Assembly (NCBI GenBank): GCA_964372395.1 | Contig: CAYJQV010000005.1 | Location: 126 to 64,125 of the forward strand | From: an uncultured Planctomycetia bacterium | Lineage (GTDB): Bacteria > Omnitrophota > Gorgyraeia > 1-14-0-20-64-10 | DNA length: 64,000 bases | Reading direction: 5' to 3' | Shown here: in pieces, positions 5,091-45,589 of the stretch | Position numbering within the stretch: position 1 is the first letter of the stretch | Layout: every line of letters starts with the position of its first letter | The notes under the pieces: model-generated | The model's input: the letters and a program-made list of their open reading frames with translations, nothing else | What the model was told of the DNA's origin: nothing | Databases searched by the model: none | Position numbers and translations under genes: made by a program

Positions 5091-5165
5091 GGCAGCCTCC
5101 TTCAAGCCTCTATATGAAAATATAATACATTTATATGACTCTGTCAATACCTCCTGCGTGGGGTT
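5091..5165 (-). promoter_or_regulatory. AT-rich promoter-like region upstream of the VapBC-1 operon
   Basis: Minus-strand TTGACA(5143-5148 rc) / TATTAT(5122-5127 rc) and a GAAGGAGG RBS; a local GC trough in an otherwise GC-rich window. Confidence 0.4.
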
Positions 5166-8100
5166 CTAGAGGTTCCCGCCGAGCGTGTCGGTGTCGGCGG
5201 CGATCTCCTCGAATACCGCGGGCAGCGAGGCCTCCTCCATGCCGGCAAGAGCCATGAGGAGCTGGCCCAGGCTCTCCGGCGCGAAGATGATCTCGTTCAA
5301 GCCCCCGCCGACACTGAAATCGAACCGCGTCCGTCCCACGGTCGCCGTGCCCAGCTCCCCCGCAGCCGCCGGGACCACCTCACCGAGCATCCATTGCTCC
5401 TCGGCAACCGCCGAGGGCCGCGCCCCCAGCCGAACGGTCGGCACCCCTAATCCGAGGGCGTCGAACCGATCCCCCTGATCCTCCCAGAGCATCTGGGCGA
5501 CTGGAATTCCCCGGTCTGTGAGGGAACGGGAAACCCCCACCGCGCCGGGGAACAGCAGGATCGGCCCCGGAGCCCTCCGCGATTCTTCCTCCTCCATCCC
5601 GGCGGCGACAGGAACAGGCAAGACGTTGACCTGGGTGCGGAAGAGGTTGCCGAGAAGCTCCTTGCGGGAGGGATCGCGCCCGCGCTCCTCCTCCCTTCGC
5701 TCCCGCGAGAGGGTGTCGGCGGCTGTCCCCAGCCGCGCTGCCTCCGCGGGAGGATACCCCAGGAGGTTTCCCAGTCGGAAGGCGGCGATCGCCGCGTGAG
5801 TGGCGCCGCTGGTGTAGGTGAGCCGCAGGACCGGCGAAGGAAGGACCTGAACCCGAGCCCTGTCGTTCACCAGCACCAGCCCGCCTGCCCTCACCGGGAT
5901 CAGCCACTCGCGGATGCCGTGAGTCCGACGGAGAGTCTCGGCCTGTGCCGCCGCCTCCTCGGGCCGGTAGCGGAGGGCCCTGCCAGACGTTCCCAGGAAA
6001 TTGGCGAGGGTTTCCTGCGCGGTGATGAACAGGTCGGGCCCCACCTCCTGAAAGCGGGTCCGGGTGGATGAATCCCAGGAGGCGTTGGCCTCCACGATCG
6101 TGGGGAAGCCCCTTCCCTTCGCCCACCGGGCCTCTTCCACCTGGGCATGGTTCGAGGGCTCATCCACCAGCCGCTCACCCAACGCCAGATGTGGAACAGG
6201 CCGTCCCTCCTTTTCAGCTCGCGCCGCCTCCTCCTCCATGACGCGTCGGACTTCCTGAGCCGCTTCCCGGATTGCCTCCGGAGGAAGTGGAGTTCCTACA
6301 CCAACCAGCCGCCTCTCCGCACCGGAATCGCTGGCCACCATGAGACTGACCCGCGAGGATTGACCATCCTTTCGGAGAATAGGCTCGATGGTGACGCCCT
6401 TGCCGCGCAGGGTCTCCACAATCGCCTCACCGGTTTCACCGCCCACCACCGCCACCAGCTCCGCGGGGGCTCCCAGGGCATGGGTCGCCTGCACAAGGTT
6501 CGGGGCAAAACCGCCCGGATGGAGACGCACGGCAAGCTGCTTGGTTCCATCGGCCCGGGTCTTCACTGAAACGACAAGGTCGAGTGTCCCGTTTAAGCTC
6601 AGACCCACGAGGGTCGGAAGCCTCTCCTCCCTTTCGGCAGCTCTTTCTGGCGGAGGGGGAATTTCCTTTTCCAATCTCACCAGATGGGGGAAACGCTCCG
6701 CGTACATCCGGACCAGCCGGAAGGCCTGCTGGGTAAGCTGATCGCGGCTCTCGCCCAAGCGCCCGAAGGCCTCCACGGTACGATGGCTCCAGCGTCCGAT
6801 CCTCTCGAATAGCTCGATGAGTTGGCCCAACTGCCGGGGCTCGCGAATCTCATTGAGCGTGCGGAGGGCGCTCCGGACCTCCTCATCCGCATCGGCATTC
6901 AGCGGCCGGTCGCCGGGCTGTGCCCGAAGGCGGGCAAGGACCTGGGCGATCCCCGGGTGATCCCACGGAAGGCCGATCCGCTCGTAGGCTTTGATGAGGC
7001 GAGCCTCCAGGAAACGGTCCTCAAAGATCTCCCGCCGGGAGATGAGCAGGATCCTGCGAATCTCCATCAGCCCCATCTTCACGTCCAGGACCGGACGGCC
7101 CTGACGGACCAGGGGGCGGGACCTGTCGTAGCGGGCGCGGTGCTCCCGGGCAGGGTCGGTCTGGTTGACGAGGCCAAACCTCTCCATCTCTTCCCAGCCC
7201 ATCAGGCGGAACTGCCCCGGGGAAAGCTCCGCCACCCAGTAATCCCGGTCTGCCAGGGGCTTGGCGTAGTCGTCCGACGGCCTCCACCTTTGGTCGCCCG
7301 CGGGAGGCACCGGCTCCGCCAGGTTCCTTGGGGTGATGAAGAGCCTTCCTAAGCCATCTTCTCCCACAACTCCCCAGACGTTGTACTCGGTCAGCGCCAC
7401 CCCCGGTTCCTTCAGCCAATCCAGGATCTGGCTGGCCCGGGCGATCATCGCATCCTGCTCGGCCCGGGTGCCCTGGCCTTCCAGGACAAAGGTGGTCATG
7501 CCGGGATTCTTGAGGATCCCCACCCGGATCCCGCGCAAAAGGAAAAACCACTCGATCTCATCATCCCCGGGATTGTCCATCGGCATCCTCCAGGGGATTC
7601 CATGCAGATGCGCCCACTCGGGGAGGCTGGCCGCCGCCTTGAGGGCGATGTTGCCCCCGACCACCGTGCCGATCCCCCTCTGCAGCCACATCTCCCGCAC
7701 CGCAGCCCGGATCGGCTCGGCCCACCGGGCCTGATCCACCTGCTGAGCGACCGGCATGGTGAAGTGTCTCCAGGTATAGCCGTAGGGGCTCAAGCGGTAG
7801 TCGACGGGGTTATCCAGATCCTTCGCAAACCCCGGCAGGGTTCTCTGCCGGAGGGTCTCGATCCGGTCCCCCACGACAAACCGGATGGGATGCGCGTCAT
7901 CCAGCGGATGGGGAGCCTGCTGGCCCGGCTCGGGCGCAGGAGGTTTCGGGGTATTGGCCCGATTGGGGTTGAACATGATGTCCACCGGCCCGTCGGGCAA
8001 GACCCCCACCCTGTACTCGGTGCCGGTGAAGAAGTCCCGCTTCTGCACGTCCACCGCCTGCTGCTGGGCGACAAAGGCCTGCACCGCCTCGGCAGGGGAG

Positions 8101-9146
8101 ATCTTTCCCCGGCTGACCAGCTCATTCAAGCGGGGAGCCCGCTGATCCCGGGAGATCACCTTGCCGGTCACCACACCCTGGTTGGCCAGCGTGAGCTGCC
8201 CGGCTGCCTCGTCCAGACCCCTCTGTGCACGGGCCAGCTCTTCAGCATCTCCAACTCGGGCAGCCGCCTCAGCCCGCTCCTTTGCCTGCAAGAAGGCCTG
8301 TCGTGCATTCTGCTGCGCAAGGGCGAGCTCCTGCTCCCCATCCTCGACCCCGATGTCCCGCAGACGGCCGGTGGGCTCCGAGAGAACCTGCGAGGGATTG
8401 GGCGGCCGGATCCGAATCCGCCCCGCCGGATCCAGGCGATACCACTGGTTGTTCCAAAAGAGCTCCACCGTGAAGGAATGATCGCCAACGTACTCCGGCT
8501 TGGCCTCCAGGCGCCCCTCGAACCGGACCCAGCCGTCCGGCCAGACATTGCGCACCTTCATGCCGATCGTCTTTTCCTTCACCACAATCCTTCCTCCGTC
8601 TCCTGAAAAGATCGAAAGCTGGATCTGCACCCGTTTCGGGATGTACGGGGCGAGCTCCTGCTTGATCCTCCCGCGCAAGACGGGGCTGACCCCTTCGCCG
8701 GGCCTCACTCCCTTGAAATAGAGGTCGCCGGAGTCCAGGCTCCCGTCGCCCGGCAGTTGCCTCACCAAGTCCTGAAGAGCAGGCGGAAGCTGCGAGACCC
8801 GGATGGAGGCGAAGAAACGCTGATACTGAGGCGGCCCGCCCCGCGTCCCCATGATGGTCATGCGGGGGAGCCGCTCCCCGCCGAACGGAACCACGTCTCC
8901 CCCGTCCTTCCAGACGAGCTGTGCCGGCGGCGTATCCGGATCCTCCGGCTCCGGGAAGGTCATCTCCTCCATGCCGGAGCGGAGGAGGTTCTGCCCCTCG
9001 GTGTCCTGGATGCGGCGCAGGGTGGCTGGCTCGTCCGAAAGGGCCCAAGCCGGGATGGGATCTCCCAGAAGGAGGGAGAGGATGAGAGGGCCGCTGAGAG
9101 CCGGTTTCAGGAACCGGCCTGGCTTTTCTATCGGCTTCTGAAGCAT
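5166..9146 (-). CDS. Large secreted multidomain protein of unknown function with C-terminal degenerate PfkB/ribokinase-like domain
   Basis: About 1,329 aa from an internal Met (MLQKPIEKPGRFLKPALSGPLILSLLLGDPIPAWALS = signal-peptide-like). The C-terminal third has PfkB-family landmarks, HPGGFAPNLVQA (cf. GGKGANQA) and TYTSGATHAAIAAFRLG (cf. DTTGAGDAFxGAF), with the catalytic Asp replaced. The remainder has no recognisable motifs. Confidence 0.5.
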   Translation of the reverse strand: MLQKPIEKPGRFLKPALSGPLILSLLLGDPIPAWALSDEPATLRRIQDTEGQNLLRSGMEEMTFPEPEDPDTPPAQLVWKDGGDVVPFGGERLPRMTIMGTRGGPPQYQRFFASIRVSQLPPALQDLVRQLPGDGSLDSGDLYFKGVRPGEGVSPVLRGRIKQELAPYIPKRVQIQLSIFSGDGGRIVVKEKTIGMKVRNVWPDGWVRFEGRLEAKPEYVGDHSFTVELFWNNQWYRLDPAGRIRIRPPNPSQVLSEPTGRLRDIGVEDGEQELALAQQNARQAFLQAKERAEAAARVGDAEELARAQRGLDEAAGQLTLANQGVVTGKVISRDQRAPRLNELVSRGKISPAEAVQAFVAQQQAVDVQKRDFFTGTEYRVGVLPDGPVDIMFNPNRANTPKPPAPEPGQQAPHPLDDAHPIRFVVGDRIETLRQRTLPGFAKDLDNPVDYRLSPYGYTWRHFTMPVAQQVDQARWAEPIRAAVREMWLQRGIGTVVGGNIALKAAASLPEWAHLHGIPWRMPMDNPGDDEIEWFFLLRGIRVGILKNPGMTTFVLEGQGTRAEQDAMIARASQILDWLKEPGVALTEYNVWGVVGEDGLGRLFITPRNLAEPVPPAGDQRWRPSDDYAKPLADRDYWVAELSPGQFRLMGWEEMERFGLVNQTDPAREHRARYDRSRPLVRQGRPVLDVKMGLMEIRRILLISRREIFEDRFLEARLIKAYERIGLPWDHPGIAQVLARLRAQPGDRPLNADADEEVRSALRTLNEIREPRQLGQLIELFERIGRWSHRTVEAFGRLGESRDQLTQQAFRLVRMYAERFPHLVRLEKEIPPPPERAAEREERLPTLVGLSLNGTLDLVVSVKTRADGTKQLAVRLHPGGFAPNLVQATHALGAPAELVAVVGGETGEAIVETLRGKGVTIEPILRKDGQSSRVSLMVASDSGAERRLVGVGTPLPPEAIREAAQEVRRVMEEEAARAEKEGRPVPHLALGERLVDEPSNHAQVEEARWAKGRGFPTIVEANASWDSSTRTRFQEVGPDLFITAQETLANFLGTSGRALRYRPEEAAAQAETLRRTHGIREWLIPVRAGGLVLVNDRARVQVLPSPVLRLTYTSGATHAAIAAFRLGNLLGYPPAEAARLGTAADTLSRERREEERGRDPSRKELLGNLFRTQVNVLPVPVAAGMEEEESRRAPGPILLFPGAVGVSRSLTDRGIPVAQMLWEDQGDRFDALGLGVPTVRLGARPSAVAEEQWMLGEVVPAAAGELGTATVGRTRFDFSVGGGLNEIIFAPESLGQLLMALAGMEEASLPAVFEEIAADTDTLGGNL

Positions 9147-9674: not shown

Positions 9675-9922
9675 CGTTTCCGTGCCCAGCGGACCGCCTC
9701 TTCAATCTCCTCCTCGGCGATTCCCAACCGCTCCCATTTCCGGCTGATTGCGTCCAGCACCGCCAGGCCCTTGTCCCGCGGGCTGACTTGAACCGGAGAG
9801 AGCACGATCCTTCGACCCGTCACCTCGCATTGAAGGAGGTCCCCCTGGCGGATCTTCAGCGTCGTCACCGCCTCCCTGGGCAAGGTAATCTGGTACTTGC
9901 TCAACACCTTCCGTAGCATCAT
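9671..9922 (-). CDS. AbrB/MazE/SpoVT-family antitoxin (VapB-like)
   Basis: About 83 aa from the internal MM start (MMLRKVLSKYQITLPREAVTTLKIRQGDLLQCEV... swapped-hairpin AbrB-like fold); stop overlaps the vapC start. Confidence 0.6.
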   Translation of the reverse strand: MMLRKVLSKYQITLPREAVTTLKIRQGDLLQCEVTGRRIVLSPVQVSPRDKGLAVLDAISRKWERLGIAEEEIEEAVRWARKR

Positions 9923-9956
9923 GGCCTCATCCCCCTCAACTCCCAGTATATCTGAA

Positions 9957-9981
9957 AGTAGGAAAGTAGTCAATACCTACT
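9957..9981. promoter_or_regulatory. Inverted repeat AGTAGG-N13-CCTACT upstream of the VapBC-2 operon (candidate operator)
   Basis: AGTAGGaaagtagtcaataCCTACT lies 35-60 nt upstream of the antitoxin start in a relatively AT-rich spacer. Confidence 0.35.
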
Positions 9982-10055
9982 AAGCATGCCGGCGGAAACC
10001 TTGAAGAATCGGTTATTCAACCGATATTTCAATGCAGATCTGAAGGGGCGGTGCC

Positions 10056-34710: not shown

Positions 34711-36249
34711 TCAAGGGTTCGGGTGCGCCCGCCGCCTTTCCTTCCGGGCGTGCAGGTGCCGGTTGATCGCCGCCAGGTACGCCCTGGCCGAGGCCTCCAG
34801 GATGTCGGTGGCCGCCGACCGGCCGTGCTCGACCCTCCCGTTGGCGGACAGCTTCACCGCCACCTCCCCCAGCGCATCCTTCCCGGAGGTGACCGATTGA
34901 ATCCCGTAATCCTCCAGCCTCCCCCGGAAACGGGTCAGGCGGTCAATGGCGTTGTAGATCGAGTCCACGGGGCCGTCCCCGCTGGCCGCCCCCTCGAGCC
35001 GCTTCCCATCGGAGCTCTTCAGCCGGACCGTGGCCGTTGGGATGAGGCCGGTTCCGCTGGAGACGTGGAGGTACTCGAGGGCATAGCGCTGCGGCACCTC
35101 GGAGATCTCATCCTCCACCAGCGCCGAGAGATCGTCATCGAAGACCTCCTTCTTCTTGTCCGCCAGCGCCTTGAACCGCGCGAACGACTGCTCCAGCTGG
35201 CGCGGGGTCAGCGAGAAGCCGAGCTGCCTGAGCCGCTCGACAAAGGCATGCCGGCCCGAGTGCTTGCCCAGCACCAGCCTCGACTCGCCGTAGCCGACCT
35301 CCTCCGGCCGCATGATCTCGTACGTCTTGCGGTGCGCCAGAACCCCGTGCTGGTGGATCCCCGATTCGTGGGCGAAGGCGTTGCCGCCCACGATCGCCTT
35401 GTTCGGCTGGACCAGGAACCCGGTCAGCTTCGAGACCAGGCGGCTCGCCCGGTAGATCTCCGGGGTGTTGATGCGGGTCTCCACCTTGAAGAGATCCTTC
35501 CGGACCTTGAGCGCCATCACCACCTCTTCGAGACTGGCGTTCCCTGCCCGCTCCCCGATGCCGTTCACCGTGCACTCCACCTGCCGGGCGCCGTTCTTCA
35601 CCGCCGCCAGGGAGTTCGCCGTGGAGAGCCCCAGGTCGTTGTGGCAGTGGACGGAGATCACCGCGCGGCCCACGTTCGGGACCTTCTCGCGGATCGAGCG
35701 GATGAGCTCCCCGAAATGGCTGGGGATCGCCCACCCCACCGTGTCGGGGATGTTGACCGTGGTGGCGCCCACCTCGATCACCGCCTCCAGCACCCGGTAC
35801 AGGAAGTCCGGCCGGGTCCGGGCCGCGTCCTCCGGCGAGAACTCCACGTCGTCGGTGTACCGGCGCGCCAGCTTCACCCCCGCCACCGCCAGCCGGAGGA
35901 TCTCATCCTCCGCCTTCCTCAGCTTGTACTTCATGTGGATCTCGGAGGTGGCCACGAAGGTGTGGATCCGCTTCCTCCGCGCGGATTTCAGCGCCCTCCC
36001 CGCCGCCTCGATGTCCTTCGGGACCGCGCGGGCGAGGCTGGCGATGACCGGCCGCCGGACCTCGCGCGCGATGAGACCCACCGCCTGGAAATCGCCGGGC
36101 GAGGAGACGGCGAATCCGGCCTCGATCACGTCCACCCCCAGCCGGTCCAGCTGCCGGGCGATCTCCAGCTTCTGCTGCGGGTTGAGCGACGCGCCCGGGC
36201 ACTGCTCCCCGTCCCTCAGCGTCGTATCGAAGATGATCACCCGATCCAT
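34711..36249 (-). CDS. leuA: 2-isopropylmalate synthase (or (R)-citramalate synthase)
   Basis: 512 aa; [39 protein letters not shown] and a C-terminal LeuA-dimer regulatory domain. Confidence 0.85.
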
Positions 36250-36262
36250 CGTCAGCTCCGAC

Positions 36263-37378
36263 TCAGCGTCTGGCCGTCACGCGCCGGCCCGCCCTTGCTC
36301 GTCCGGCCCGAGCGGCCTTCCGGACCGCAGGCCGGGCGCCCCTCCGTCCAACCGGCGCGGTGCGCGCCTGCGTGGGAGTGGCGGGCTGCTGTGTGATCCA
36401 CGGCATCATGGAACGCAGGCGAGCCCCCACCAGCTCGATCAGGTGCCGGTCCCCTGCCTGCATGAGCGCCTTGAAGACCGGCCGTCCCGCCTGGCACTCG
36501 TTGATCCACTCCCTCGCGAACCGGCCGGAGCGCACCTCCTCCAGGATCCGCTGCATCTCAGCGCGGGTCTCCTCCGTGATGACGCGCGACCCGCGCGTGA
36601 GCCCCCCGTAGCGGGCCGTCTCCGACACGCGGGCCCACATCCCCTGGATCCCCTGCGCGTAGATCATGTCCACGATGAGCTTCAGCTCATGCAGGCACTC
36701 AAAGTAGGCCAGCTCCGGCTGATAGCCGTTCTTCACCAGCGTATCGAACCCGGCCTTGATGAGCTCGGTCACCCCGCCGCAGAGGACCGTCTGCTCGCCG
36801 AAAAGATCGGTCTCGGTCTCCTCGGCGAAGGTGGTCTCCAGCACCCCGGCTCGGGTCGAGCCCAAGCCCTTGGCATACGCCAGGGCGATCGCCTTCGCCT
36901 TGCCGGACGGATCCTGGTGGACCGCCAGAAGAGACGGCACACCGCCGCCCTGCGTGAAGAGCTGGCGGACCAGCGATCCCGGCCCCTTCGGGGCGACCAG
37001 GAAGACATCCACCTCGCGGGGCGGTTCGATCTGGTGGAAGTGGATGTTGAATCCGTGCGCGAAGCCGAGCGCCTTGCCGGATTTCAGATGCTGAACGACG
37101 GAGGTGCGGTACACCTCCGGCTGCAGGGTGTCCTGCAGGAGCACCATGATCACCTGCGCCTGCGCGCAGGCCTCGGCCACCGAGGTGGGGGCCAAGCCGT
37201 CCTCCACCGCCTGCGCATGGTGCGGCCCGCCGGGGCGCTGGGCGACGACGACGTCCAGCCCGGAGTCGCGCAGGTTCAGCGCATGCCCCCGCCCCTGGAT
37301 GCCGTAGCCCAGGATGGCAATCCTCCTGCCCTTCAGGAAACTCAAATCCGCGTCCTTGTCGTAATAGATCCTGGCCAC
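36263..37378 (-). CDS. ilvC: Ketol-acid reductoisomerase (class I) with Arg/Ala-rich C-terminal tail
   Basis: 371 aa; [21 protein letters not shown] Rossmann motif, the IlvC catalytic domain through ...MMPWI, then about 40 aa of a basic tail ([33 protein letters not shown]). Confidence 0.95.
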
Positions 37379-37389
37379 TTCGCCTCCTC

Positions 37390-37869
37390 CTATGAGTCCC
37401 GGCCCAGGGCGACCCGCCCTGTCCGCACGATCTCCTTGATCCCGTAGGGCTTGACCAGCTCCAGCAGGGTCTTCACCTTCGCGGGATCCCCCACCAACAG
37501 CAGGGTCAGCGACTTCACCCCCACATCGGCGACCTCCGCCTTCAGGGTCTCCGCAATCTCCACCACCTCCGGCCGCGTCCGGGGCGTCACCGAGACCTTC
37601 ACCAGGATGAGCTCCCGGTCCAGATGCTCCTCCTTCGTGAGATCCTGGATGGAGATGACGTCCACCAGGCGGTTGAGCTGCTTCTTCACCTGCTCGATCG
37701 TCTTCTCGTCCCCGTCAAAGACGATCGTCATCCGCGAGGCCGTCGGATCCTCCGTCTCCCCCACCGCCAGGGAATCGATGTTGAATCCCCGGCCGGCGAT
37801 GAGGGTGGAGATCCTCGCCAAGACGCCGAACTTGTTCTCCACCAAAACCGAAAGGACATGCTTAGCCAT
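37390..37869 (-). CDS. ilvH: Acetolactate synthase small (regulatory) subunit
   Basis: 159 aa; ACT domain [34 protein letters not shown]; an AAGGAG RBS lies upstream. Confidence 0.9.
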
Positions 37870-37892
37870 CCATCAACTCCTTTGCCTTCTCA

Positions 37893-38038
37893 TCCCTCCA
37901 GGAGGGAGGAATCCTAGGGAGGGAACCTGGGTTCCCTCCCTAGAACGCAGGCGAGGCGACCGCTGGTCCAGGCACGGCCACGAAGCCGAGAGGCACACAA
38001 CCACCGCTGGTCCGAGCACCGGAGCCTCGCCTGCGTTC
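37893..38038. repeat. Structured ilvB-ilvH spacer with nested palindromes
   Basis: TCCCTCC-A-GGAGGGA (37893-37907); a 30-bp palindrome CTAGGGAGGGAACC-TG-GGTTCCCTCCCTAG (37914-37943); a 15-bp inverted repeat GAACGCAGGCGAGGC (37943-37957) / GCCTCGCCTGCGTTC (38024-38038) enclosing two CCGCTGGTCC copies, the right arm overlapping the ilvB stop codon. Confidence 0.7.
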
Positions 38039-39728
38039 AAGCCATGTCCAGGATCATCTCGTCGATCGCCTTGCCCGGCGGGATGATCGGGAAGACCTTC
38101 TCCTCCTCGTCACAGAGGCAGTCCACCACCCAGCACTCCTTGTCGCTGAGCACCTTCTCCAGCGTGGGCCTGACCTCCTCCGGCTTGGAGATCGTCACCC
38201 CGCGCGCGCCGAATCCCTCGGCCACCTTGGCGAAGTCCGGCGGGCGGATGGCGCTGTGGGAGAAGCGCCTCCTGTAGAACATCTCCTGCCACTGCCGCAC
38301 CATCCCCAGGTAGAAGTTGTTGATGATGATCGATTTGATCGGGAGCTTGTGGTCCACCGCCGTCGCCAGCTCCTGGATGTTCATCACGAAGGAGCCGTCG
38401 CCGGTGAGGCAGATGACCCGCTCGTTCGGTCGGCCGAACTGCGCGCCGATCGCCGCCGGCAGGCCGTAGCCCATGGTGCCCAGCCCTCCGGAGGTGATGT
38501 AGGTGCGCGGGCGGGTCCACCGGTAAAACTGGCAGGCCCACATCTGATGCTGGCCGACGTCGGTGGTCATGAGGCAGTCGCCCCTCGTCAGCTCCGAGAG
38601 CGCCTCCAGCACGTACTGGGGCTTGAGCTTCCCGTTCTTCTCCTGCGTGTAGGTGAGCGGATGCTTCTTCTGCCACTCGTGGATCTGATCCCACCAGCCG
38701 CTGTAATCCGGCTTCTTCCTGAGCGCCTGGATCTGGCGGATGAGCTCCTTCAAGACGCGCTTCACGTCCCCCACGATCGGAACGTCCACCCGGACGCTCT
38801 TCCCGATGCAGGCCGGATCGATGTCGATGTGGATCTTCTTCGACTTGGGCGAGAAGGTGTCCACCTTGCCGGTCACACGGTCGTCGAAGCGGGCGCCGAT
38901 GTTCACCAGGAGGTCGCAGTACTGGACCGCGTAGTTCGTGGAGGCCGCCCCGTGCATCCCCAGCATCCGAAGCGACAGCGGCTTGTCCTCGGGATAGATC
39001 CCCAGCGCCATGCAGGTCGTGGTGACCGGGGCGCCGACCAGGTCCACCAGCTCCCGCACCTCCCCGGCTGCTTCGGACATGACCGCCCCGCCGCCCACGT
39101 AGATGACCGGCTTCTGAGCCTCGAGGATGAGCTTGGCCGCCTTGTCGATCTGCCCGCGGTGCCCCTCTATGAAGCGCTCCGGCTTGTAGCCGCGGATCTC
39201 AATCTTCTCCGGCCACGCGAACTCGATCTCGGCCTGCGAGACATCCACCGGGACGTCCACCAGCACCGGGCCCGGCTTGCCGGTCCCGGCGATGAAGAAC
39301 GCCTCCCGGATCGTCCGGGCCAGGTCGGCGACATCCTTCACGAGATAATTGTGCTTCGTGATCGGGCGGGTGATCCCGCAGGTGTCGGCCTCCTGAAAGG
39401 CGTCGTTGCCGATGAGGTAGGTCCGCACCTGCCCGGTGATCGCCACGATGGGGACCGAGTCCATGAAGGCGGTGGCCAGGCCGGTCACCAGGTTCGTCGC
39501 CCCCGGCCCGGAGGTCGCCATGCAGACCCCCACGCGCCCCGTGGCGCGGGCGTAGCCGTCGGCCATGTGGGCCGCCCCCTGCTCGTGCCGCACCAGCACA
39601 TGCTTCAGGGGGGCATCGTACAGCGCGTCATAGATCGGCAGGTTCGCCCCGCCGGGGTAGCCGAAGAGAATCTCCACCCCCTCCCGCTTGAGGCATTCCA
39701 CCAGGATCTGCGCACCCTTCATCTTCAT
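38037..39728 (-). CDS. ilvB: Acetolactate synthase large subunit
   Basis: 563 aa; ThDP-binding GDGSFVMNIQELATA, an FAD-binding domain, and a full-length AHAS fold. Confidence 0.95.
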   Translation of the reverse strand: MKMKGAQILVECLKREGVEILFGYPGGANLPIYDALYDAPLKHVLVRHEQGAAHMADGYARATGRVGVCMATSGPGATNLVTGLATAFMDSVPIVAITGQVRTYLIGNDAFQEADTCGITRPITKHNYLVKDVADLARTIREAFFIAGTGKPGPVLVDVPVDVSQAEIEFAWPEKIEIRGYKPERFIEGHRGQIDKAAKLILEAQKPVIYVGGGAVMSEAAGEVRELVDLVGAPVTTTCMALGIYPEDKPLSLRMLGMHGAASTNYAVQYCDLLVNIGARFDDRVTGKVDTFSPKSKKIHIDIDPACIGKSVRVDVPIVGDVKRVLKELIRQIQALRKKPDYSGWWDQIHEWQKKHPLTYTQEKNGKLKPQYVLEALSELTRGDCLMTTDVGQHQMWACQFYRWTRPRTYITSGGLGTMGYGLPAAIGAQFGRPNERVICLTGDGSFVMNIQELATAVDHKLPIKSIIINNFYLGMVRQWQEMFYRRRFSHSAIRPPDFAKVAEGFGARGVTISKPEEVRPTLEKVLSDKECWVVDCLCDEEEKVFPIIPPGKAIDEMILDMA

Positions 39729-39794: not shown

Positions 39795-39821
39795 GGGGTC
39801 TGACCCCGCCGGGGTCAGACC
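39795..39821. repeat. Family-1 palindromic element pair GGGGTCTGACCCCG-C-CGGGGTCAGACC at the ilvD stop codon
   Basis: The ilvD TGA stop (39815-39817 rc) lies inside the right arm of the element. Confidence 0.8.
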
Positions 39822-41479
39822 TCAAGCACCGCTCCCTCGCTGGCCGAGCCAACGAGTCTCGCGTAGCGCGCCATGACGCCGGTCTTGTATTTCGGCGCGG
39901 GCGCCTTCCACTTCTTCAGGCGGATCTTGAGCTCCGCCGCAGTGAGATCCACATTCAACCGGCGCTTCTTCACGTCCACGGTGATGAGGTCCCCATTCTT
40001 CACCGCGGCGATCGGGCCGCCCACCGCGGCCTCCGGCGCCACATGCCCTGCCATCAGCCCGTGCGTCGCCCCGGAGAACCGCCCGTCGGTCAGCAGGGCC
40101 ACGGAGCTGCCCAGGCCCTCCCCCACCATCGCGCCGGTGACCGCGAGCATCTCCCGCATGCCGGGGCCTCCCTTCGGCCCCTCGTAGCGGATCACCACCA
40201 CGTCCCCCTTCCTGATCCTGCGGGCCTTGACCGCGGCGAAGGCATCCTCTTCACAGTCGAACACCCGCGCCGGGCCCCGGAAGAGCAGCTTCTGTTCTCC
40301 CGCCACCTTCAGCACGCATCCCTCAGGAGCCAGGTTCCCCCGCAGGATCGCCAGCCCCCCGCTCTTCTTCAAAGGGCTCGCCAGCGGGCAGACCACCTTC
40401 TGGCCTGAGGTCTCCCTGGCCAGGGCCGCCTCCTCGCCGATCGTGCGGCCGGTGACGGTGAGAGCCTTCTTCCTCAAGAGCCCCGCATCCAGCAAGCGCT
40501 TGGCCACCAGGCGGATCCCGCCCGCTCGGTGCATGTCCGGCGCGGTGAAACGCCCCCACGGCTTCATGTCCGCCCAGATCGGAGTGCGTCGGCTCACCCT
40601 GTCAAAATCACCGATCGAAAGCGTCACCCCCGCTTCCCTCGCCAGCGCCAGAAGGTGCAGCACCCCGTTCGTCGATCCGCCGGTGGCAACAATGCTAGCG
40701 ATCGCATTCTCAAAGGCCCCCCGGGTCAGGATCCGGCGCGGGGTCGGTCCCTTCCGGACCAGCTCCATCGCCAGCCGGCCCGCCTCGTAGGCGGCCCGGT
40801 CCTTCTCCGGGTCCATCGCCGGGATGGAGTTTGTCCCCATCGGAGAAATCCCCGAGAGCTCCATCGCTGTGGCCATGGTGTTGGCGGTAAACTGCCCGCC
40901 GCAGGCCCCCGGCCCCGGACAGGCGCTCTTCTCCAGCTCCAGAAGCTGCTTCTGGCTCATCCGTCCCGCCGCGCAGGCCCCCACCCCCTCGAACACGTCC
41001 TGGATCGTTACATCCCGTCCCTCGAACCGGCCCGGGGCGATCGAGCCGCCGTAGATCATCAGCCCCGGCAGATTCACCCGGGCCAGCGCCATCACGGTCC
41101 CCGGAATCGTCTTGTCGCAGCCGGAGATCGCCACCAGTCCGTCGAACAGGTGCCCTCGCGCCACGAGCTCAATCGAGTCGGCCACCACCTCGCGGCTCAC
41201 CAGCGAGCACTTCATCCCCTCCGTGCCCATCGAGATCCCGTCCGAGACTGAAACGGTGTTGAACTCGATCGGCACCCCGCCCGCGTCGCGGACCCCCCGC
41301 TTCACCTGCTCCGAGAGCCGCCGCAGATGGAAATTGCACGGCATCACCTCGGTCCAGGTGTTGGCCACCCCGATCAGCGGCTTGTCGAAGTCCGCATCGG
41401 ACAACCCAACCGCCCGAAGCATGGCCCGCGCGGGGGCGCGGCTCAGCCCCTTCTTCAGCGCGTCGCTGCGGAGCTTCAT
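39815..41479 (-). CDS. ilvD: Dihydroxy-acid dehydratase
   Basis: 554 aa; CDKTIPG (Fe-S cysteine), [11 protein letters not shown] and the [10 protein letters not shown] signatures of IlvD/EDD. Confidence 0.95.
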
Positions 41480-41517
41480 CTAATTTTTCATCCAGGGAAG
41501 TCCCGCAAAGCGGGGTT

Positions 41518-41724
41518 TCATCGCACTGTCGATACGATCTGGCTCGGCTGCCTGTCCGGCAGAGAGGAGCGGAGCCACTCTTCCAGCTCCGACCGCCGGA
41601 ACCGGATCGCCCGGCCAATCCGAACGGCAGGCAGCTCTCCGGCCTTGGCCTTCCGGTAAACCGTTTGAGGGTTTACCCTTAGGTACTCCGCCACTTCGGA
41701 AACCGTCATGACATCTTTGGGCAT
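41518..41724 (-). CDS. Excisionase-family helix-turn-helix DNA-binding protein (AlpA/Xis/MerR-like HTH_17)
   Basis: 68 aa; MTVSEVAEYLRVNPQTVYRKAKAGELPAVRIGRAIRFRRSELEEWL matches the excisionase-family HTH pattern (LTVxEAAEYLGVSxxTVYRLxxxGxLPAxKIGRxWRFxxxxLxxWL). Confidence 0.6.
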   Translation of the reverse strand: MPKDVMTVSEVAEYLRVNPQTVYRKAKAGELPAVRIGRAIRFRRSELEEWLRSSLPDRQPSQIVSTVR

Positions 41725-41911
41725 GGGCTTCTACTCCAGAAAGTCCAGAAACAAGCTCCAGAAACAACACGCCAGGCACCTTCCTCTATATGGGTGCCTG
41801 GCACCTTGGAGGAAATAATTATATTACAGGCAGGTGAAACCGCTGTCAACCGCTTTTATACTGGCTTATACTGGCGTGGATGAAGCGGCGGGGCATCGAG
41901 GATACCCGGAC
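41725..41911. promoter_or_regulatory. AT-rich structured spacer with direct repeats, upstream of the HTH gene
   Basis: Three TCCAGAAA(G/C) repeats (41736-41770), inverted repeat CCAGGCACC-N14-GGTGCCTGG, AT-rich GGAAATAATTATATTACAGG, and duplicated TTATACTGGC; a local GC trough. Confidence 0.45.
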
Positions 41912-44900
41912 TTACGCCGCGATCAGCAGGCCCAGCTCCTTATCAAGCTGCTGCCGGAGCTGAGTGCCGGTATCGGGAAGAGGGACACCGAGGAATTTCA
42001 GCAGATCCACCACAAACCGGACCGGATCGGCCAGGGAAAGATCGCGGGCCGGCTCTACGGAAATGCCGGCATGCCGCGCAAAGGGCTGGAAGTCCGAAAA
42101 CTCCGCATCGGAACCCAAGAAGGTGGCCGAAGCAATCTCCCTTCCGTACAGCCCCGCGGCCCAGCCGGCCCTGGCCTCCAACAGCTCCCCGCGGGCCATT
42201 CCCTGAATCTGCGGATCAAAGAAGATGAGCGGATGCAGCTCCCCCAGCGCCCCTTCCACCAGAGCCGGGAGGAACGGCATCGCGTCCCGGTAGATGGTGG
42301 GCCCCACCACCACCGCCTGCTTCCCCACCCGGCTGGCTGGCTGGCTCACCAACCGATGCAGGGTTGCCCTCACCCTCTCCTCAGCCGCCCGGACCTCCTC
42401 CATACCGGCGGTGTCCCCGACGGCGGCGTTGTAGATCTCCATCGACTGATAGGCCATCAGGAGGAGCTTCGCCAGGTTGGTGGTGACCGCAAAGACCGGC
42501 TCCCCCGACTCCGGGTCGGTCCCCTCATATCGGAAAGGCCAGTGGAGGTCATGGAACGGCTCTCCCACCACCTGCTCGACCTCGTCCGCCAATTCAGGAA
42601 TCCCGACTGATTTCCGCCGCGCCCAACCCAGCAGGACCTCTGGGGTATGGCGGCGACCCTCCTCCGCCGCCTTTCGCTGGATGACGGATGCGACAAAGAG
42701 CGCCGTCCTGCCGTAGGCATTGGTGTCCACAACGAGCAGCGGCGCCCCATCGGGAAGATTGGCGCTTGCGAACTGCCGGTACAGATGCGAGGCCTGCACC
42801 GCCACCGTGGGATCCTCCCTGAGAAGCCGTTCCACCCCTTCGTCAAACCGGCCTCTGAACTCCCGGTAGATCTGATCCCGCCGGGCCGGATCCCCCGCCG
42901 CCTCCTCCGGAAGGATCCCTCTCTGCCTGAGCAGATCCACGACGTCCGTCCATATTGCGGACGTTTTCTTGAGGGTGTGGTCCAGCACCGGGTCTCTTGC
43001 CCGGACCGATACGGACTCCCTCGGCGCACCCGGCTGGTAGATGAGATGCGCCTGGAAGGGCTCGCCCCGCACCGCCGCCTGGTACGCTCCGAACTCGTAC
43101 ACCGTCAGGGAGTCCCTCGCCAGAAGGATCGGCACACTGTGACGGCCCCGGATCGCATCCCAGAGGGCCGGAAGGTGGCGGACGTGGCTGCGGATGAACT
43201 CCACATCGGGAATCACCCGCCGGTTGCTCTCCAGAACCGCGGGGATTGCCTGCATCGCCTGCATTTCTCCGCGCCCCCGGAAACGTCCCGGCAGGAACTC
43301 ATACGAAGCGATGAAGCCCTCTGACAGCTCACGAAGGATCCGGCGGATCTCGGACTCGGTGAAGGCCCGCGGCCGGCCCTGCTCATCGCGCGGGAAGGCC
43401 TCCGGCGGCAGCAGCCAGAAGGGGCGGCGGACCTCCTCCATGGAGAGCATGCTTCGATAGATGAAAGACGTCATGCTGCGGATGAAGGCACTGACTGCAT
43501 CTCGTGCCGGGCTTCGAAGCACCAAACGCCGGCTGCTCTGGTAGAAATCCTCGATGCTGCCGGGCTCCCACCAGCCGCTCAGCGCCGGCTGCAGGATAAG
43601 CTCCGGCCTGTGGAAAGGGACCTTCCCGGGATTCCATCGAAATCCGGCCGATCGGGGTCCGCGGATCCGCAGCGGCTCCGGCCCCTGAAACCTGCGGCCC
43701 AGGCGCTGGATGACGCGCCGGATCGCGATATCCTGCAGATGCTCGGCCGCCGTCTCCTGCCTCGCGTAATCGGTCCCGCTGTCCCTGTTGCTGAGGGCGG
43801 TATCGTAGACATCCGAGGCCGACCGGATCAGCTCCTCCAGCTCCTCGGGGTGATCCCTGAAATAGACGTAGTACGCCTCCTCGTACAGGCCAAGCGCCTC
43901 CTCCTTGGAAAGGGGCCGGCCTTCCACCAGGTGAACCAGCTCCCATCCGTCGGGCCCGAACCATTCATTCAGCAAGCGTTCGATCGCCGGCCGGTTCCAA
44001 CCGAATGGCCCGGGACGGAGCGCCCCACCCTCCCTCCAGTAGTGGAGGAGCACCTCCGCCTTGGTTCGACCGAGTATGGCGCCCGGGTCGCGCCGAATCG
44101 GCCCGGCGGAACGGACCTGGAAGCGAAGCGGCCGGGATCTCCCCCGCGCCATCGTTTCCACGGCATCCACATGCCCGCGCAGATGCTGAAGCCGCCCGCC
44201 CGGCCCCCGCAGGCGGACAGGGGACTGGACCGCCCCCTTGCTGCCCAGGGGCGGGATATTCAGACGGAGCGTCCTGGGATCGAGAAGCCAGACCAGCTCC
44301 CGCCAGGCATCCCCATCCGGCAGGGGGACCGAAAGGAGAAGCTCCAGCTTCCGGTCGCTGAGAAACAGCCAGGTTCCGCGAGGCAGGAAGAGTGCAGGAA
44401 GGAGCTGCCAATCCTGATTCTCCGCCGTCCGGTACCAGACGCCGTTTTCGTCCAGGCGGAGTTCCGTCGCCTGCACGCTCCGGGCACCGGCCCACAGCTC
44501 CTCCAAGACCCATCCCTGCAGGGGAGCGTAAGGATTTTCCTTGCCAGCCTTCAGAGGAACCAGCTCGAATCTCGGTTCGCCATGAAACGTTTCCAGCTCG
44601 AGCTGCAGGCCCCAGCCGATCTGGACCGCCCCCTTGCCGGCGGCAACCTCCTCCAGGACCACCGGCCTCTGCTGCAGAAGCCTTGGAATTTCGCGCACAC
44701 CGTCTCGCCAAAGCGCCGGGTCCCTCAGCACGTCTGCCGCGATCTCGACGTCGGGAAGACCGGCCGCTTCAAAGATCCGATGGAGCTCGGCCGCCGAAGA
44801 TTCCTCCATCCCGGCGGCCGGGTTTCCTTCGGGCCTGAGCGCCTCCTCCAGGCCAGTTCTGCTTTTGCCCTCCGAGGCTGGCTGCGGGCGAAGCGTGTCC

Positions 44901-45025
44901 GACGCAAGAACAAGAGCCGGACAGAGGAATGGCGTGACTGGGCAGAGGAGCTGCGTCAGCAGAAAACCAACGAGCGTCAGCCGGGCGATCCGGTGGTCGC
45001 GGCTGACTCTGCGGAACTTGGTCAT
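41912..45025 (-). CDS. Large secreted/membrane-anchored hypothetical protein (about 1,037 aa), no recognisable domains
   Basis: A long ORF with uniform coding character. Taking the internal Met gives a signal-peptide-like N-terminus (MTKFRRVSRDHRIARLTLVGFLLTQLLCPVTPFLCPALVLASD) with an AGGA 4 nt upstream; alternative ATGs lie at 45052 and 45076. An AT-rich promoter-like region follows at 45077..45151. Confidence 0.5.
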   Translation of the reverse strand: MTKFRRVSRDHRIARLTLVGFLLTQLLCPVTPFLCPALVLASDTLRPQPASEGKSRTGLEEALRPEGNPAAGMEESSAAELHRIFEAAGLPDVEIAADVLRDPALWRDGVREIPRLLQQRPVVLEEVAAGKGAVQIGWGLQLELETFHGEPRFELVPLKAGKENPYAPLQGWVLEELWAGARSVQATELRLDENGVWYRTAENQDWQLLPALFLPRGTWLFLSDRKLELLLSVPLPDGDAWRELVWLLDPRTLRLNIPPLGSKGAVQSPVRLRGPGGRLQHLRGHVDAVETMARGRSRPLRFQVRSAGPIRRDPGAILGRTKAEVLLHYWREGGALRPGPFGWNRPAIERLLNEWFGPDGWELVHLVEGRPLSKEEALGLYEEAYYVYFRDHPEELEELIRSASDVYDTALSNRDSGTDYARQETAAEHLQDIAIRRVIQRLGRRFQGPEPLRIRGPRSAGFRWNPGKVPFHRPELILQPALSGWWEPGSIEDFYQSSRRLVLRSPARDAVSAFIRSMTSFIYRSMLSMEEVRRPFWLLPPEAFPRDEQGRPRAFTESEIRRILRELSEGFIASYEFLPGRFRGRGEMQAMQAIPAVLESNRRVIPDVEFIRSHVRHLPALWDAIRGRHSVPILLARDSLTVYEFGAYQAAVRGEPFQAHLIYQPGAPRESVSVRARDPVLDHTLKKTSAIWTDVVDLLRQRGILPEEAAGDPARRDQIYREFRGRFDEGVERLLREDPTVAVQASHLYRQFASANLPDGAPLLVVDTNAYGRTALFVASVIQRKAAEEGRRHTPEVLLGWARRKSVGIPELADEVEQVVGEPFHDLHWPFRYEGTDPESGEPVFAVTTNLAKLLLMAYQSMEIYNAAVGDTAGMEEVRAAEERVRATLHRLVSQPASRVGKQAVVVGPTIYRDAMPFLPALVEGALGELHPLIFFDPQIQGMARGELLEARAGWAAGLYGREIASATFLGSDAEFSDFQPFARHAGISVEPARDLSLADPVRFVVDLLKFLGVPLPDTGTQLRQQLDKELGLLIAA

Positions 45026-45151
45026 CCTATCGTCGGGCTCCGGACAATCCATGGAGGAAAAGCCGATGGTGCGCATCGGGTCCCGTATTAAAAGTTACTC
45101 GACAGCGGGCAGACTTTCAAGGAGAAATATCTTCCTATTTATTTCTGCTAA

Positions 45152-45589
45152 CTATTGGGCCAGGATCAGCGTGACGGGGCCGTCGTTGATGAGGCCGACC
45201 TGCATGCGGGCGGCAAACTGGCCTTCTCGGACCGGAAGGCCCGCCGCCTGAAGCTGCCGGACGAAAAGCTCGAGGAGCCGGCGGGCCTTCCCCGGTTCCT
45301 CGGCAGGATCAAAGCTGGGCCTTGTCCCCTTCGCGAGATCGGCAGCCAGCGTGAACTGGGAAACCACCAGCAGCTCTCCTCCCACTGCCTGGACGGAGAG
45401 ATTCATCTTGCCCTGATCGTCCTCGAAGATCCGAAGCTGCACCACCTTTCCGGCGAGATCCGTGGCCGCGGCCTCGGCATCCCCTTTCTCCACACCGACC
45501 AGCACCAGGAGTCCCTTGCCGATCCGGGAGATCTCCCGCCCATCCACGGAGACCCAGGCCTCCCGGACCCGTTGCAGAACGGCCTTCAA
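45152..45589 (-). CDS. dtd: D-aminoacyl-tRNA deacylase
   Basis: 145 aa; MKAVLQRV..., SQFTL motif, C-terminal NDGPVT. Confidence 0.9.
   Translation of the reverse strand: MKAVLQRVREAWVSVDGREISRIGKGLLVLVGVEKGDAEAAATDLAGKVVQLRIFEDDQGKMNLSVQAVGGELLVVSQFTLAADLAKGTRPSFDPAEEPGKARRLLELFVRQLQAAGLPVREGQFAARMQVGLINDGPVTLILAQ

Follow-up and report, generated by a model that had tools for sequence, protein, structure and literature searches.

BldC of Streptomyces is a 68-residue protein that consists of a winged helix-turn-helix (wHTH) domain alone and assembles head-to-tail into multimers on 9-bp direct repeats, each of which combines an AT-rich tract with a G/C pair contacted by Arg30 (PMC5859096). In Bcs3, the capsule polymerase of Haemophilus influenzae b, the CriT domain follows the plan HB-1/CAT/HB-2/CAT/HB-1 and has its catalytic residue, D680, within the initial part of the catalytic domain (PMC10299916). 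Long proteins of the phylum Omnitrophota are described as multi-enzyme architectures, 94 % of which have a signal peptide or a transmembrane segment (bioRxiv 10.64898/2026.06.07.730766). We analyzed 64,000 nucleotides of DNA (hereafter the window; 67 % GC) from an uncultured bacterium labelled Planctomycetia and placed in Omnitrophota (assembly GCA_964372395.1, contig CAYJQV010000005.1, positions 126 to 64,125). Within the interval studied, where every gene is on the minus strand, a large open reading frame (ORF; 'BIG', 41912-45025) is followed by a 187-bp spacer (41725-41911) and a gene for a 68-amino-acid (aa) helix-turn-helix protein, here called the HTH gene (41518-41724), which precedes ilvD. 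A preliminary description of this interval had presented the two genes as a pair, either the remnant of an island or a regulator-effector module. We consider it rather likely that they are two independent units: the HTH gene and the spacer make up the control region of an ilv-leu operon, and the large ORF encodes a separate protein of secreted type that resembles CriT and phosphoribosyltransferases (PRTs).

We hold with high confidence that the spacer and the HTH gene are the control region and first cistron of an HTH-ilvD-ilvB-ilvN-ilvC-leuA operon (ilvD, 39815-41479; ilvB, 38037-39728; ilvN, 37390-37872; ilvC, 36263-37390; leuA, 34711-36276; all minus strand). The promoter, the repeats, the hairpin, the HTH gene and the ilv genes form one conserved unit. 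Relatives were taken from genome and metagenome scans, in which loci were numbered L### and homologs of the large ORF P####. With one genome scanned per species, the closest relatives of the HTH gene lie in Omnitrophota metagenome-assembled genomes, some of them labelled Planctomycetia. The HTH gene is directly upstream of ilvD in all twelve close loci (L007-L018), with ilvB following wherever the contig reaches it, and none of the twelve has the large ORF within 6 kb. The nearest relative, L007, shares 89 % identity in the HTH protein, 93 % in IlvD and 96 % in IlvB; its order is dtd, HTH, ilvD, so that dtd (D-aminoacyl-tRNA deacylase) directly precedes the HTH promoter and the large ORF is absent. 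When metagenome contigs are counted, the adjacency of HTH gene and ilvD is found in 29 distinct related Omnitrophota loci, of which 5 (the window, L001, L165, L084/L166 and L101) contain a homolog of the large ORF and 24 do not. The order from the HTH gene to leuA is the same in the window and L001, and no terminator lies in the 38-bp gap between the HTH gene and ilvD (41480-41517). This gap contains a small hairpin, CCCGC-UUU-GCGGG, which lacks a U-tract and does not resemble a terminator; it may influence translational coupling or the processing of the mRNA. A literature search for an excisionase-family gene linked to ilvD returned nothing.

The comparison of related genomes speaks against a regulator-effector pair: the HTH gene is a conserved ilvD-associated gene, the large ORF is missing from 24/29 loci, and a full promoter separates the two genes. 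The preliminary description had itself held that a conserved association of the HTH gene with ilvD would count against the pairing, and this association is what the neighborhoods showed. Its reading of the spacer as a control region is borne out by the promoter, repeats and hairpin that are kept before HTH-ilvD. Every sequence feature that it listed was found where it had been placed, including the three TCCAGAAA copies, the inverted repeat and the duplicated TTATACTGGC of the spacer.

The spacer contains a sigma-70-type promoter (TTGACA-17 nt-TAATAT, 41821-41849, minus strand) with 10/12 consensus matches. Two tandem direct repeats, GCCAGTATAA on the minus strand and TTATACTGGC on the plus strand, lie 6 nt upstream of the -35 box (41856-41875) with a period of 10 bp. 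The 19-nt double repeat had no match in 100 shuffles, and there is no second copy elsewhere in the 64-kb window or flanking the large ORF. In an alignment of upstream regions, the invariant block (A/G)CCAGTATAA(A/G)CCAGTA(T/G)AA is followed after 4-13 nt by TTGACA and after a further 16-18 nt by TAnnAT; the aligned promoters share an invariant -35 box and a conserved -10 box, and the block of repeat plus TTGAC is kept in 30 distinct related promoters. The double repeat was also looked for in 241 million metagenome records; we examined 80 of the 103 matching stretches and kept those with TTGAC within 16 nt. This gave 22 instances; the HTH gene is downstream in 19, with ilvD as well in 18 and three duplicate contigs among them. 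As for the remainder, the L084 and L110 contigs end too soon to tell and L136 is an unrelated satellite, so that within the stretches examined the block precedes no gene other than HTH. Each GCCAGTATAA unit contains a YpG step plus an AT-rich tract, and the GC-containing CCAG half is as conserved as the AT-rich half. Two distant HTH homologs away from ilvD, L019 and L020, have a pair of GTATA motifs 10 bp apart upstream of their own gene (-38/-28 and -40/-30 relative to the start codon). Since these homologs keep similar repeats without linkage to ilvD, the repeats travel with the HTH gene, as expected of an autoregulatory operator. In the window the repeats are centered near -45 and -55. An operator at such a position suggests activation or recruitment more than occlusion.

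A further set of repeats lies between the hairpin and the start codon: three copies of UUUCUGGA on the minus strand (41735-41742, 41744-41751 and 41757-41764), corresponding to TCCAGAAA on the plus strand. These are the only three copies of TCCAGAAA in the whole window, all within 30 bp; they overlap the U-tract, and the last one carries the Shine-Dalgarno sequence GGAG at 41734-41737. Among 30 related leaders, TCCAGAAA occurs in one or two copies in the nearest relatives L007, L107 and L149 and in none of the others, so the triplet looks like a local, lineage-specific triplication. The proposal that the HTH protein binds these repeats is not borne out, since they are not conserved in most of the 30 leaders and the invariant element is the duplicated TTATACTGGC. 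We also inspected the spacer for a sigma-54 promoter in the 3' arm of the hairpin (TGGCAC), which was rejected because the GG-N10-GC spacing does not fit and the AC is missing in most loci. Separately, a purine-rich motif, ATAG(A)GGAAG, is conserved directly 3' of the -10 hexamer in most related promoters (L001, L009, L010, L013, L016, L149, L160 and L165), and it lies inside the hairpin loop in the window (CAUAUAGAGGAAGG, 41781-41792), L007 and L014; it may be a discriminator, an element of the initial transcript, or a decoy resembling a Shine-Dalgarno sequence.

The HTH protein matches HTH_17 (PF12728) with an E-value of 9e-21 and 74.3 bits over residues 5-53, and it passes TIGR01764 'excise' with 65.3 bits against a cutoff of 28.8. 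The AlpA model (PF05930) gives 17.1 bits against a gathering cutoff of 21, and the MerR and MADS1 models are also below their cutoffs. The AlpA/Xis-type label given to it earlier thus holds for the HTH_17/excisionase family and fails for AlpA. The closest sequence matches in the PDB are the BldC-DNA complexes 6ama and 6amk (E 7e-6), and other PDB relatives are a mycobacteriophage excisionase and RdfS. When BldC residues are mapped by alignment, Arg30 corresponds to R23, and Gly44 and Arg48 are conserved as G and R. The protein is wHTH-only and about 70 aa long, without an effector or coiled-coil domain; the ilvD-linked orthologs show almost no variation in its DNA-binding region, and the recognition helix is slightly different in L019 and L020. 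Because its closest solved relative, BldC, binds direct repeats head-to-tail, the tandem repeats are the likely operator of the HTH protein. We put the chance that the protein does bind the two repeats at about even.

Downstream of the promoter, the leader can fold into a hairpin (41768-41805, minus strand) with arms at 41793-41805 and 41768-41780 and a U-rich tract at 41755-41767. These arms include the inverted repeat CCAGGCACC (41772-41780)/GGTGCCTGG (41793-41801). The leader of the window has a minimum free energy of -37.5 kcal/mol (z = -3.0), and most related leaders also have a strong hairpin downstream of the -10 box with a U-rich tract immediately after it. We compared the 13-bp stem base, GGUGCCAG(G/U/C)CACC ... 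GGUG(C/A/G)CUGGCACC, in 18 distinct leaders. In these, 96 % of the stem cells pair, versus 31-46 % in controls with slid partners; 5/13 stem pairs show double (compensatory) changes, with position 9 occurring as G-C, U-A and C-G. The covariation score was reached by 0/500 shuffles. Over 20 leaders we counted 29 G-U pairs on the HTH strand, and as these would be A-C mismatches on the opposite strand, they indicate that selection acts on the structure in the RNA read from the HTH strand. In L084, L109 and L129, a second leader class has an unrelated sequence and the same arrangement of a stem plus U7, and the L109 and L129 leaders fold to a hairpin. Because this class keeps stem and U7 with unrelated sequence, the conserved thing is a terminator-like architecture. 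The leaders thus show a GC-rich stem with a U-tract directly after it on the transcribed strand, together with covariation, as in an intrinsic terminator or attenuator. Searching Rfam with the spacer and one related leader gave only chance miRNA-like hairpin matches far below threshold, and the hairpin is not a REP-like repeated palindrome, as its sequence is unique in the window. In one relative, L012 (1200-1465), an insertion of about 230 bp lies between the hairpin with its U-tract and the HTH start codon and holds a 27-nt direct duplication, GACGGAAATACCTCTCAAACCGCTAAA twice.

These features suggest the following mode of control. Transcription would start at the strong sigma-70 promoter in the spacer, and the BldC-like HTH protein encoded by the operon would bind the two GCCAGTATAA repeats head-to-tail, leading to autoregulation of the operon. 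The transcript would then form the GC-rich hairpin with its U-rich tract right before the ribosome-binding site, and this hairpin may act as a leaky terminator or attenuator that reduces or gates read-through into HTH-ilvD. Several observations weigh against this proposal. The HTH protein scores 40.8 bits with the NCBIfam model HTH_BldC (NF033787), whose cutoff is 77; the wing residue His46 of BldC is Ala in the HTH protein and Trp31 is K; and the protein has no effector or sensor domain. The repeats have a 10-bp period and two copies, compared with the 9-bp period of the BldC operator. As to the hairpin, the 3' arms entering the covariation count were chosen by best pairing, which biases that count toward structure; the U-tract of the window (GUGUUGUUUCUGG) is weak and imperfect and was not called by a consensus terminator scan; and the hairpin is missing in a few leaders (L123, L101). 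The leader of the window also contains no leader peptide ORF, T-box, riboswitch or evident alternative antiterminator. Across the leaders, only 6-25 nt precede the stem, too short for an obvious antiterminator. By inspection we found one candidate, UUCCUC pairing with GAGGAA in the loop (window, L007), and set it aside as speculation, since the main stem is energetically much stronger and the pairing does not occur generally.

One alternative to these proposals takes the hairpin as simply the intrinsic terminator of the upstream gene, whose 3' UTR would contain the operon promoter, and the repeats as a UP-like AT-rich promoter element, with the HTH protein regulating other targets. In nearly every locus the gene upstream points the same way and stops no more than about 40 bp short of the repeats, overlapping them in a few cases, and no terminator of its own was seen across the examined loci. 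UP elements lie at roughly -40 to -60, which is also where the repeats lie, and the HTH protein has no sensor domain. However, the CCAG half of the repeats is conserved equally with the AT-rich half, which is not required of a UP element, and repeats of a similar kind accompany the distant HTH homologs in other settings. We therefore consider this alternative fairly unlikely as a whole. Its two views of the hairpin are not exclusive, because a terminator placed after a promoter also acts on the transcripts of that promoter, and the hairpin probably does end transcription of the co-directional upstream gene as well. We put the odds that the hairpin is an attenuator, rather than the terminator of the upstream gene alone, at about even.

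We then considered the large ORF, which would be transcribed separately and would belong to a rapidly evolving, modular class of Omnitrophota signal-peptide proteins. It encodes 1,037 aa from the second ATG and 1,054 aa from the first, at 45076. Residues 1-41 (44903-45025, minus strand) resemble a signal peptide, with a positive n-region, a long hydrophobic stretch and the putative cleavage site VLA|SD; residues ~13-41 are the sole hydrophobic segment, and the homologs P0002-P0006 have equivalent N-termini ending in AxA. Pfam and NCBIfam gave nothing significant, and PDB searches with sequence profiles built from the full family, from the core and from module A (defined below) gave nothing better than E = 0.7. 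The protein therefore keeps its earlier characterization as signal-peptide-like and without a domain recognizable by sequence. Ten close homologs were found, and the two with source names are from Omnitrophota. A family profile search over 1.8 billion representatives matched 494 representative clusters, and all family members whose source gives an organism name are Omnitrophota. The alignment shows a signal-peptide-like N-terminus, a poorly conserved N-terminal domain, a 540-aa core and a variable C-terminal domain. The core (residues ~330-870) has about 60 invariant polar or aromatic residues among homologs of 30-50 % identity, including the clusters R-D, D..G, H..D..RR and WW..E..Q, and it is duplicated in P0003 and P0004. 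In L003 (6429-12389; also L004 and L005), P0003 (1,462 aa) is divergent beside leuC-leuD; this second arrangement near branched-chain amino-acid genes may be left over from an ancestral linkage or be coincidental. In L006 (8001-16872), P0008 is a short core-only homolog of 706 aa without a signal peptide, and 1 bp after it begins a 2,249-aa protein with DUF4922, GDP-L-galactose-phosphorylase-like and HEAT repeat domains.

A short motif, xG[LM]EE, recurs in these proteins. In the large ORF, TGLEE (44843-44857) and AGMEE (44801-44815) occur shortly after the signal peptide, and a third copy, AGMEE (42395-42409, all minus strand), lies where the core meets the C-terminal domain. The fetched family contains 15 copies versus 0.85 expected. 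Among six-frame ORFs of >=150 aa in the window, [ASTG]G[LM]EE occurs six times, always in one of two giant signal-peptide ORFs, the other of which has its copies at 8978, 5603 and 5246. One copy is placed 15-25 aa past the predicted cleavage site and the others at module boundaries, and the motif may serve as a linker, mark a processing site or act as a sorting signal. The second giant ORF (5166-9143, minus strand; ~1,325 aa) has the signal-peptide-like N-terminus …PIPAWA|LSDEP, followed by RSGMEE, and, internally, a PfkB sugar-kinase domain at residues 864-1146 (Pfam 4.4e-10). In other respects it shows no relation to the large ORF. Here again, an enzyme domain of cytoplasmic type follows a signal peptide. 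A term search of the preprint on long Omnitrophota proteins found neither the two-domain core nor the xG[LM]EE motif (bioRxiv 10.64898/2026.06.07.730766).

Structure prediction, which had been proposed earlier as a check on the large protein, gave a confident core model and a weak resemblance of its second module to CriT and PRTs. The AlphaFold model of the core has a predicted local distance difference test (pLDDT) score of 92.2 and a predicted template modeling (pTM) score of 0.88, and module B alone has a pLDDT of 89.8. Module A (residues ~320-540; 43406-44068, minus strand) is a conserved alpha/beta domain with pLDDT >90 and the invariant residues Y407-D408, N413, H429, D432, R436-R437, H472, W485-W486, E492 and Q496. 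It comprises about 200 aa, is found among named sources only in Omnitrophota, has no Pfam match and no PDB analogue, and is the most widespread part of the family and the source of most family matches. Elsewhere it is fused to CTP_transf_like (cytidylyltransferase-like), PfkB, Ham1, PTH2, PHP and MBL (metallo-beta-lactamase) domains, and the whole core also occurs inside proteins of 2-4 thousand amino acids (kaa) with CofD, cytidylate kinase, APH, HAD, HD and HEAT modules. We tried module A as a HAD phosphatase on account of its VYDT strand end, but conservation does not extend to the first Asp, HAD matches are absent, and the module appears to add little to the alignment with Bcs3. That alignment covers 358-398 columns for the two-module core versus 308-389 for module B, counts given without alignment coordinates, and these similar spans suggest that module A contributes little to the Bcs3 match.

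Module B (residues ~545-872; 42410-43393, minus strand) is a PRT/CriT-like alpha/beta domain with inserted helical bundles. It has an invariant R637-D638 just after strand 1 and a motif resembling a phosphoribosyl pyrophosphate (PRPP) loop, LLVVDTNAYGRT (residues 763-774; 42704-42739, minus strand), in which D767 and G772 are invariant. This motif gave a weak profile match (E = 1.7) to VLVVDDVADTGETL of the phosphoribosyltransferase 4z1o, with a Thr in place of the second acidic residue. We take the VLVVDDVADTGETL stretch to be the PRPP-binding loop of 4z1o, as in type I PRTases. In a Foldseek search of the PDB, the top 8 matches to module B are all either Bcs3 (8a0m/8a0c; E 8e-4, prob 0.99) or 7SHG (prob 0.82-0.92), with ordinary purine PRTases lower in the list, together with alpha/beta proteins of a generic kind, among them SIS domains and SRP GTPases. 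The elements of module B run in the order helices, beta-alpha-beta unit, inserted three-helix bundle, further strands and terminal helix, which matches the CriT plan HB-1/CAT/HB-2/CAT/HB-1 (PMC10299916). As the core joins module A to a PRT/CriT-like domain, it suggests an enzyme acting on a substrate of the phosphoribosyl or nucleotide-sugar type, and the model weakly supports an enzyme for phosphoribosyl, nucleotide or sugar-phosphate-type substrates. Three points count on the other side. Module B aligns with Bcs3 and 7SHG at template modeling scores (TM) of 0.35-0.39 with 9-12 % identity, and because TM is < 0.5 the likeness to CriT is a resemblance in which membership is not established. 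Unlike Bcs3, the large ORF has no equivalent of CrpP, as the sequence of module A is not HAD-like and matches no HAD family in Pfam. A signal peptide would also take a PRPP-type enzyme out of the cytoplasm, to where there is no PRPP; the preprint on long Omnitrophota proteins reports this paradox as general among them (bioRxiv 10.64898/2026.06.07.730766).

The large ORF could instead encode a non-enzymatic structural protein of the envelope or extracellular space, with the CriT/PRT likeness reflecting a generic Rossmann-like fold. We consider this unlikely. It would suit the signal-peptide-like N-terminus, the TM below 0.5 and the generic alpha/beta proteins among the lower-ranked matches; set against these are the roughly 60 invariant polar or aromatic residues of the core, the restriction of the top 8 PDB matches to two known PRPP-dependent glycan ribofuranosyltransferases, and the repeated fusion of relatives to nucleotide or sugar-phosphate enzymes (cytidylyltransferase, PfkB, CofD, cytidylate kinase; also APH, HAD and HD).

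The position of the large ORF relative to the HTH gene bears on the question of whether the two act together. All five full-architecture homologs with readable context (the window, P0006/L001, P0002/L165, P0005/L084 and L101) occupy the same slot, with 7-37 bp between their ends and the same repeats and promoter. At five further loci the slot is filled by other modular proteins of 400-1,480 aa that have a signal peptide and xGLEE motifs (L010 2374-5862; L160 1481-5923; L109 831-2393; L129 1249-2475; L017 484-2598). These contain modules of the P0005 N-terminus and the P0006 C-terminus and no conserved core. Since full-architecture homologs and modular proteins alike sit at this position, the positional association is real. 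Different genes lie upstream of the slot (dtd, alr or abhydrolase), and the wider neighborhood is syntenic core genome. The large ORF diverges much faster than ilvD (42-55 % vs 76-93 % identity), in keeping with a variable gene parked in a conserved neighborhood, and we read the slot as a hypervariable gene position subject to repeated loss or replacement.

A single functional module, in which the HTH protein controls or acts with the secreted protein, would account for this shared slot before the HTH promoter, and we regard it as quite improbable. The homolog of the large ORF is absent from 24 of the 29 HTH-ilvD loci, the closest relative included, and the repeats and promoter lie downstream of the large ORF and face away from it. 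The paralogs P0003 and P0008 occur elsewhere without an adjoining HTH gene, the nearest case being an unrelated HTH_17 gene about 6 kb off in L006, and the identities of the large ORF and ilvD differ as given above. The comparison made provides no evidence for a functional link between the large ORF and the HTH gene.

The flanks consist of syntenic core genes, with tsaB, alr, abhydrolase and dtd on one side and ilvDBNC-leuA-aroE-pilD on the other, where aroE and the prepilin peptidase gene pilD follow leuA in transcription order. No integrase, transposase or tRNA gene is present in the window, and the GC content at third codon positions (GC3) of the large ORF is 0.79, compared with 0.7-0.9 in neighboring genes. 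With no mobility or tRNA genes, normal GC3, no flanking repeat copies and syntenic core flanks, the suggestion of an island remnant falls away. A reading of the HTH gene as an excisionase, domesticated or left as a remnant, of the repeats as its binding sites in the former attachment site of an integrated element, and of the large ORF as the cargo of that element is very improbable, even though the protein passes TIGR01764 (65 bits), its PDB relatives include a mycobacteriophage excisionase and RdfS, Xis proteins bind direct repeats cooperatively and the large ORF is polymorphic for presence between close relatives, because the 64-kb window lacks mobility and tRNA genes, the HTH gene, repeats and promoter share one core context across 29 diverged genomes, and the large ORF has typical GC3 and no second repeat copy flanking it.

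On its upstream side the large ORF adjoins dtd (45152-45589, minus strand), at a distance of 75-126 bp depending on the start codon chosen (45076 or 45025). Both spacers had been described as the lowest-GC stretches of the window; they are among the four lowest stretches and not uniquely so. Over spans of 187-200 bp the minimum is 0.48 at 41684-41870, tied with 9855-10041, and over 75 bp it is 0.373 at 45085-45159, tied with 5101-5175, with 41810-41884 in fourth place. A 99-aa ORF at 41480-41779 that overlaps the HTH gene was judged spurious (GC3 = 0.47).

To our knowledge, Omnitrophota has no cultured representatives, and our literature search found no description of an Omnitrophota regulatory system. 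The locus offers a compact unit of promoter, operator and leader in thirty natural variants, before an essential biosynthetic operon that encodes its own candidate regulator, and this candidate comes from a little-studied BldC-like branch of the excisionase superfamily. Going by sequence comparison, what appears new is a BldC-like regulator with a direct-repeat candidate operator in a new role, and a terminator-type leader without a known sensor. On the evidence of the models, a diverged, predicted CriT/PRT-like enzyme in the Omnitrophota class of signal-peptide multi-enzyme proteins would also be new. The large ORF adds a confidently modeled two-domain core to the puzzle of signal peptides on normally cytoplasmic Omnitrophota enzymes, and the xG[LM]EE boundary motif could give a handle on the processing of their modular proteins. 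The 'excisionase family' label beside an orphan gene is here no sign of a mobile-element remnant. A bolder reading can be given of each unit: a BldC-like first-cistron protein on two 10-bp repeats, together with a leader terminator hairpin, would be an undescribed, phylum-specific control of branched-chain amino-acid synthesis that replaces leader-peptide or T-box attenuation, and the large ORF would belong to an undescribed class of exported Omnitrophota proteins whose cytoplasmic-type enzyme modules, delimited by xG[LM]EE, include a new domain of ~200 aa and a diverged PRPP-transferase-like domain. We consider this bolder account possible but rather unlikely.

Compared with known systems, the control region recalls the attenuators of ilv and leu operons, which use a leader peptide in Proteobacteria and a T-box in Firmicutes, in that a promoter is followed by a terminator-like hairpin and U-tract before branched-chain genes. 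Unlike these, the window has neither a leader peptide ORF nor a T-box, and a gene for a DNA-binding protein lies between the leader and ilvD. The HTH protein shares with BldC (6AMA/6AMK) its size, its wHTH-only build and the tandem repeats of AT-rich and G/C elements beside a promoter, whereas BldC is a pleiotropic developmental regulator and the HTH protein is encoded by the first cistron of a biosynthetic operon. With excisionases and recombination directionality factors (lambda Xis, Pukovnik Gp37, RdfS, AlpA, TorI) it has the HTH_17/TIGR01764 superfamily in common; unlike theirs, its gene has a fixed place in the core genome, without an integrase, att site or mobile element.

For the large ORF, the only specific structural matches are CriT of Bcs3 (8A0C/8A0M) and 7SHG, a polysaccharide ribofuranosyltransferase of T. 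composti. As modeled, the large ORF appears to share with these two a five-strand alpha/beta PRT-like core, an inserted helical bundle and flanking helices, with a candidate PRPP-loop-like motif after a later strand, and D638 of the large ORF, an acidic residue after strand 1, can be likened to D680 of Bcs3 CriT by position, the residues themselves not being aligned. In contrast to CriT and 7SHG, the large ORF has a signal-peptide-like N-terminus, and its neighbors are dtd and the ilv operon, with no capsule or polysaccharide genes nearby. With the long multi-enzyme proteins of its own phylum (10.64898/2026.06.07.730766), it shares the combination of a signal peptide with cytoplasmic-type enzyme modules, and its core domains recur within proteins of 2-4 kaa beside kinase, HAD, HD and HEAT modules. 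Unlike those proteins it is only about 1 kaa long.

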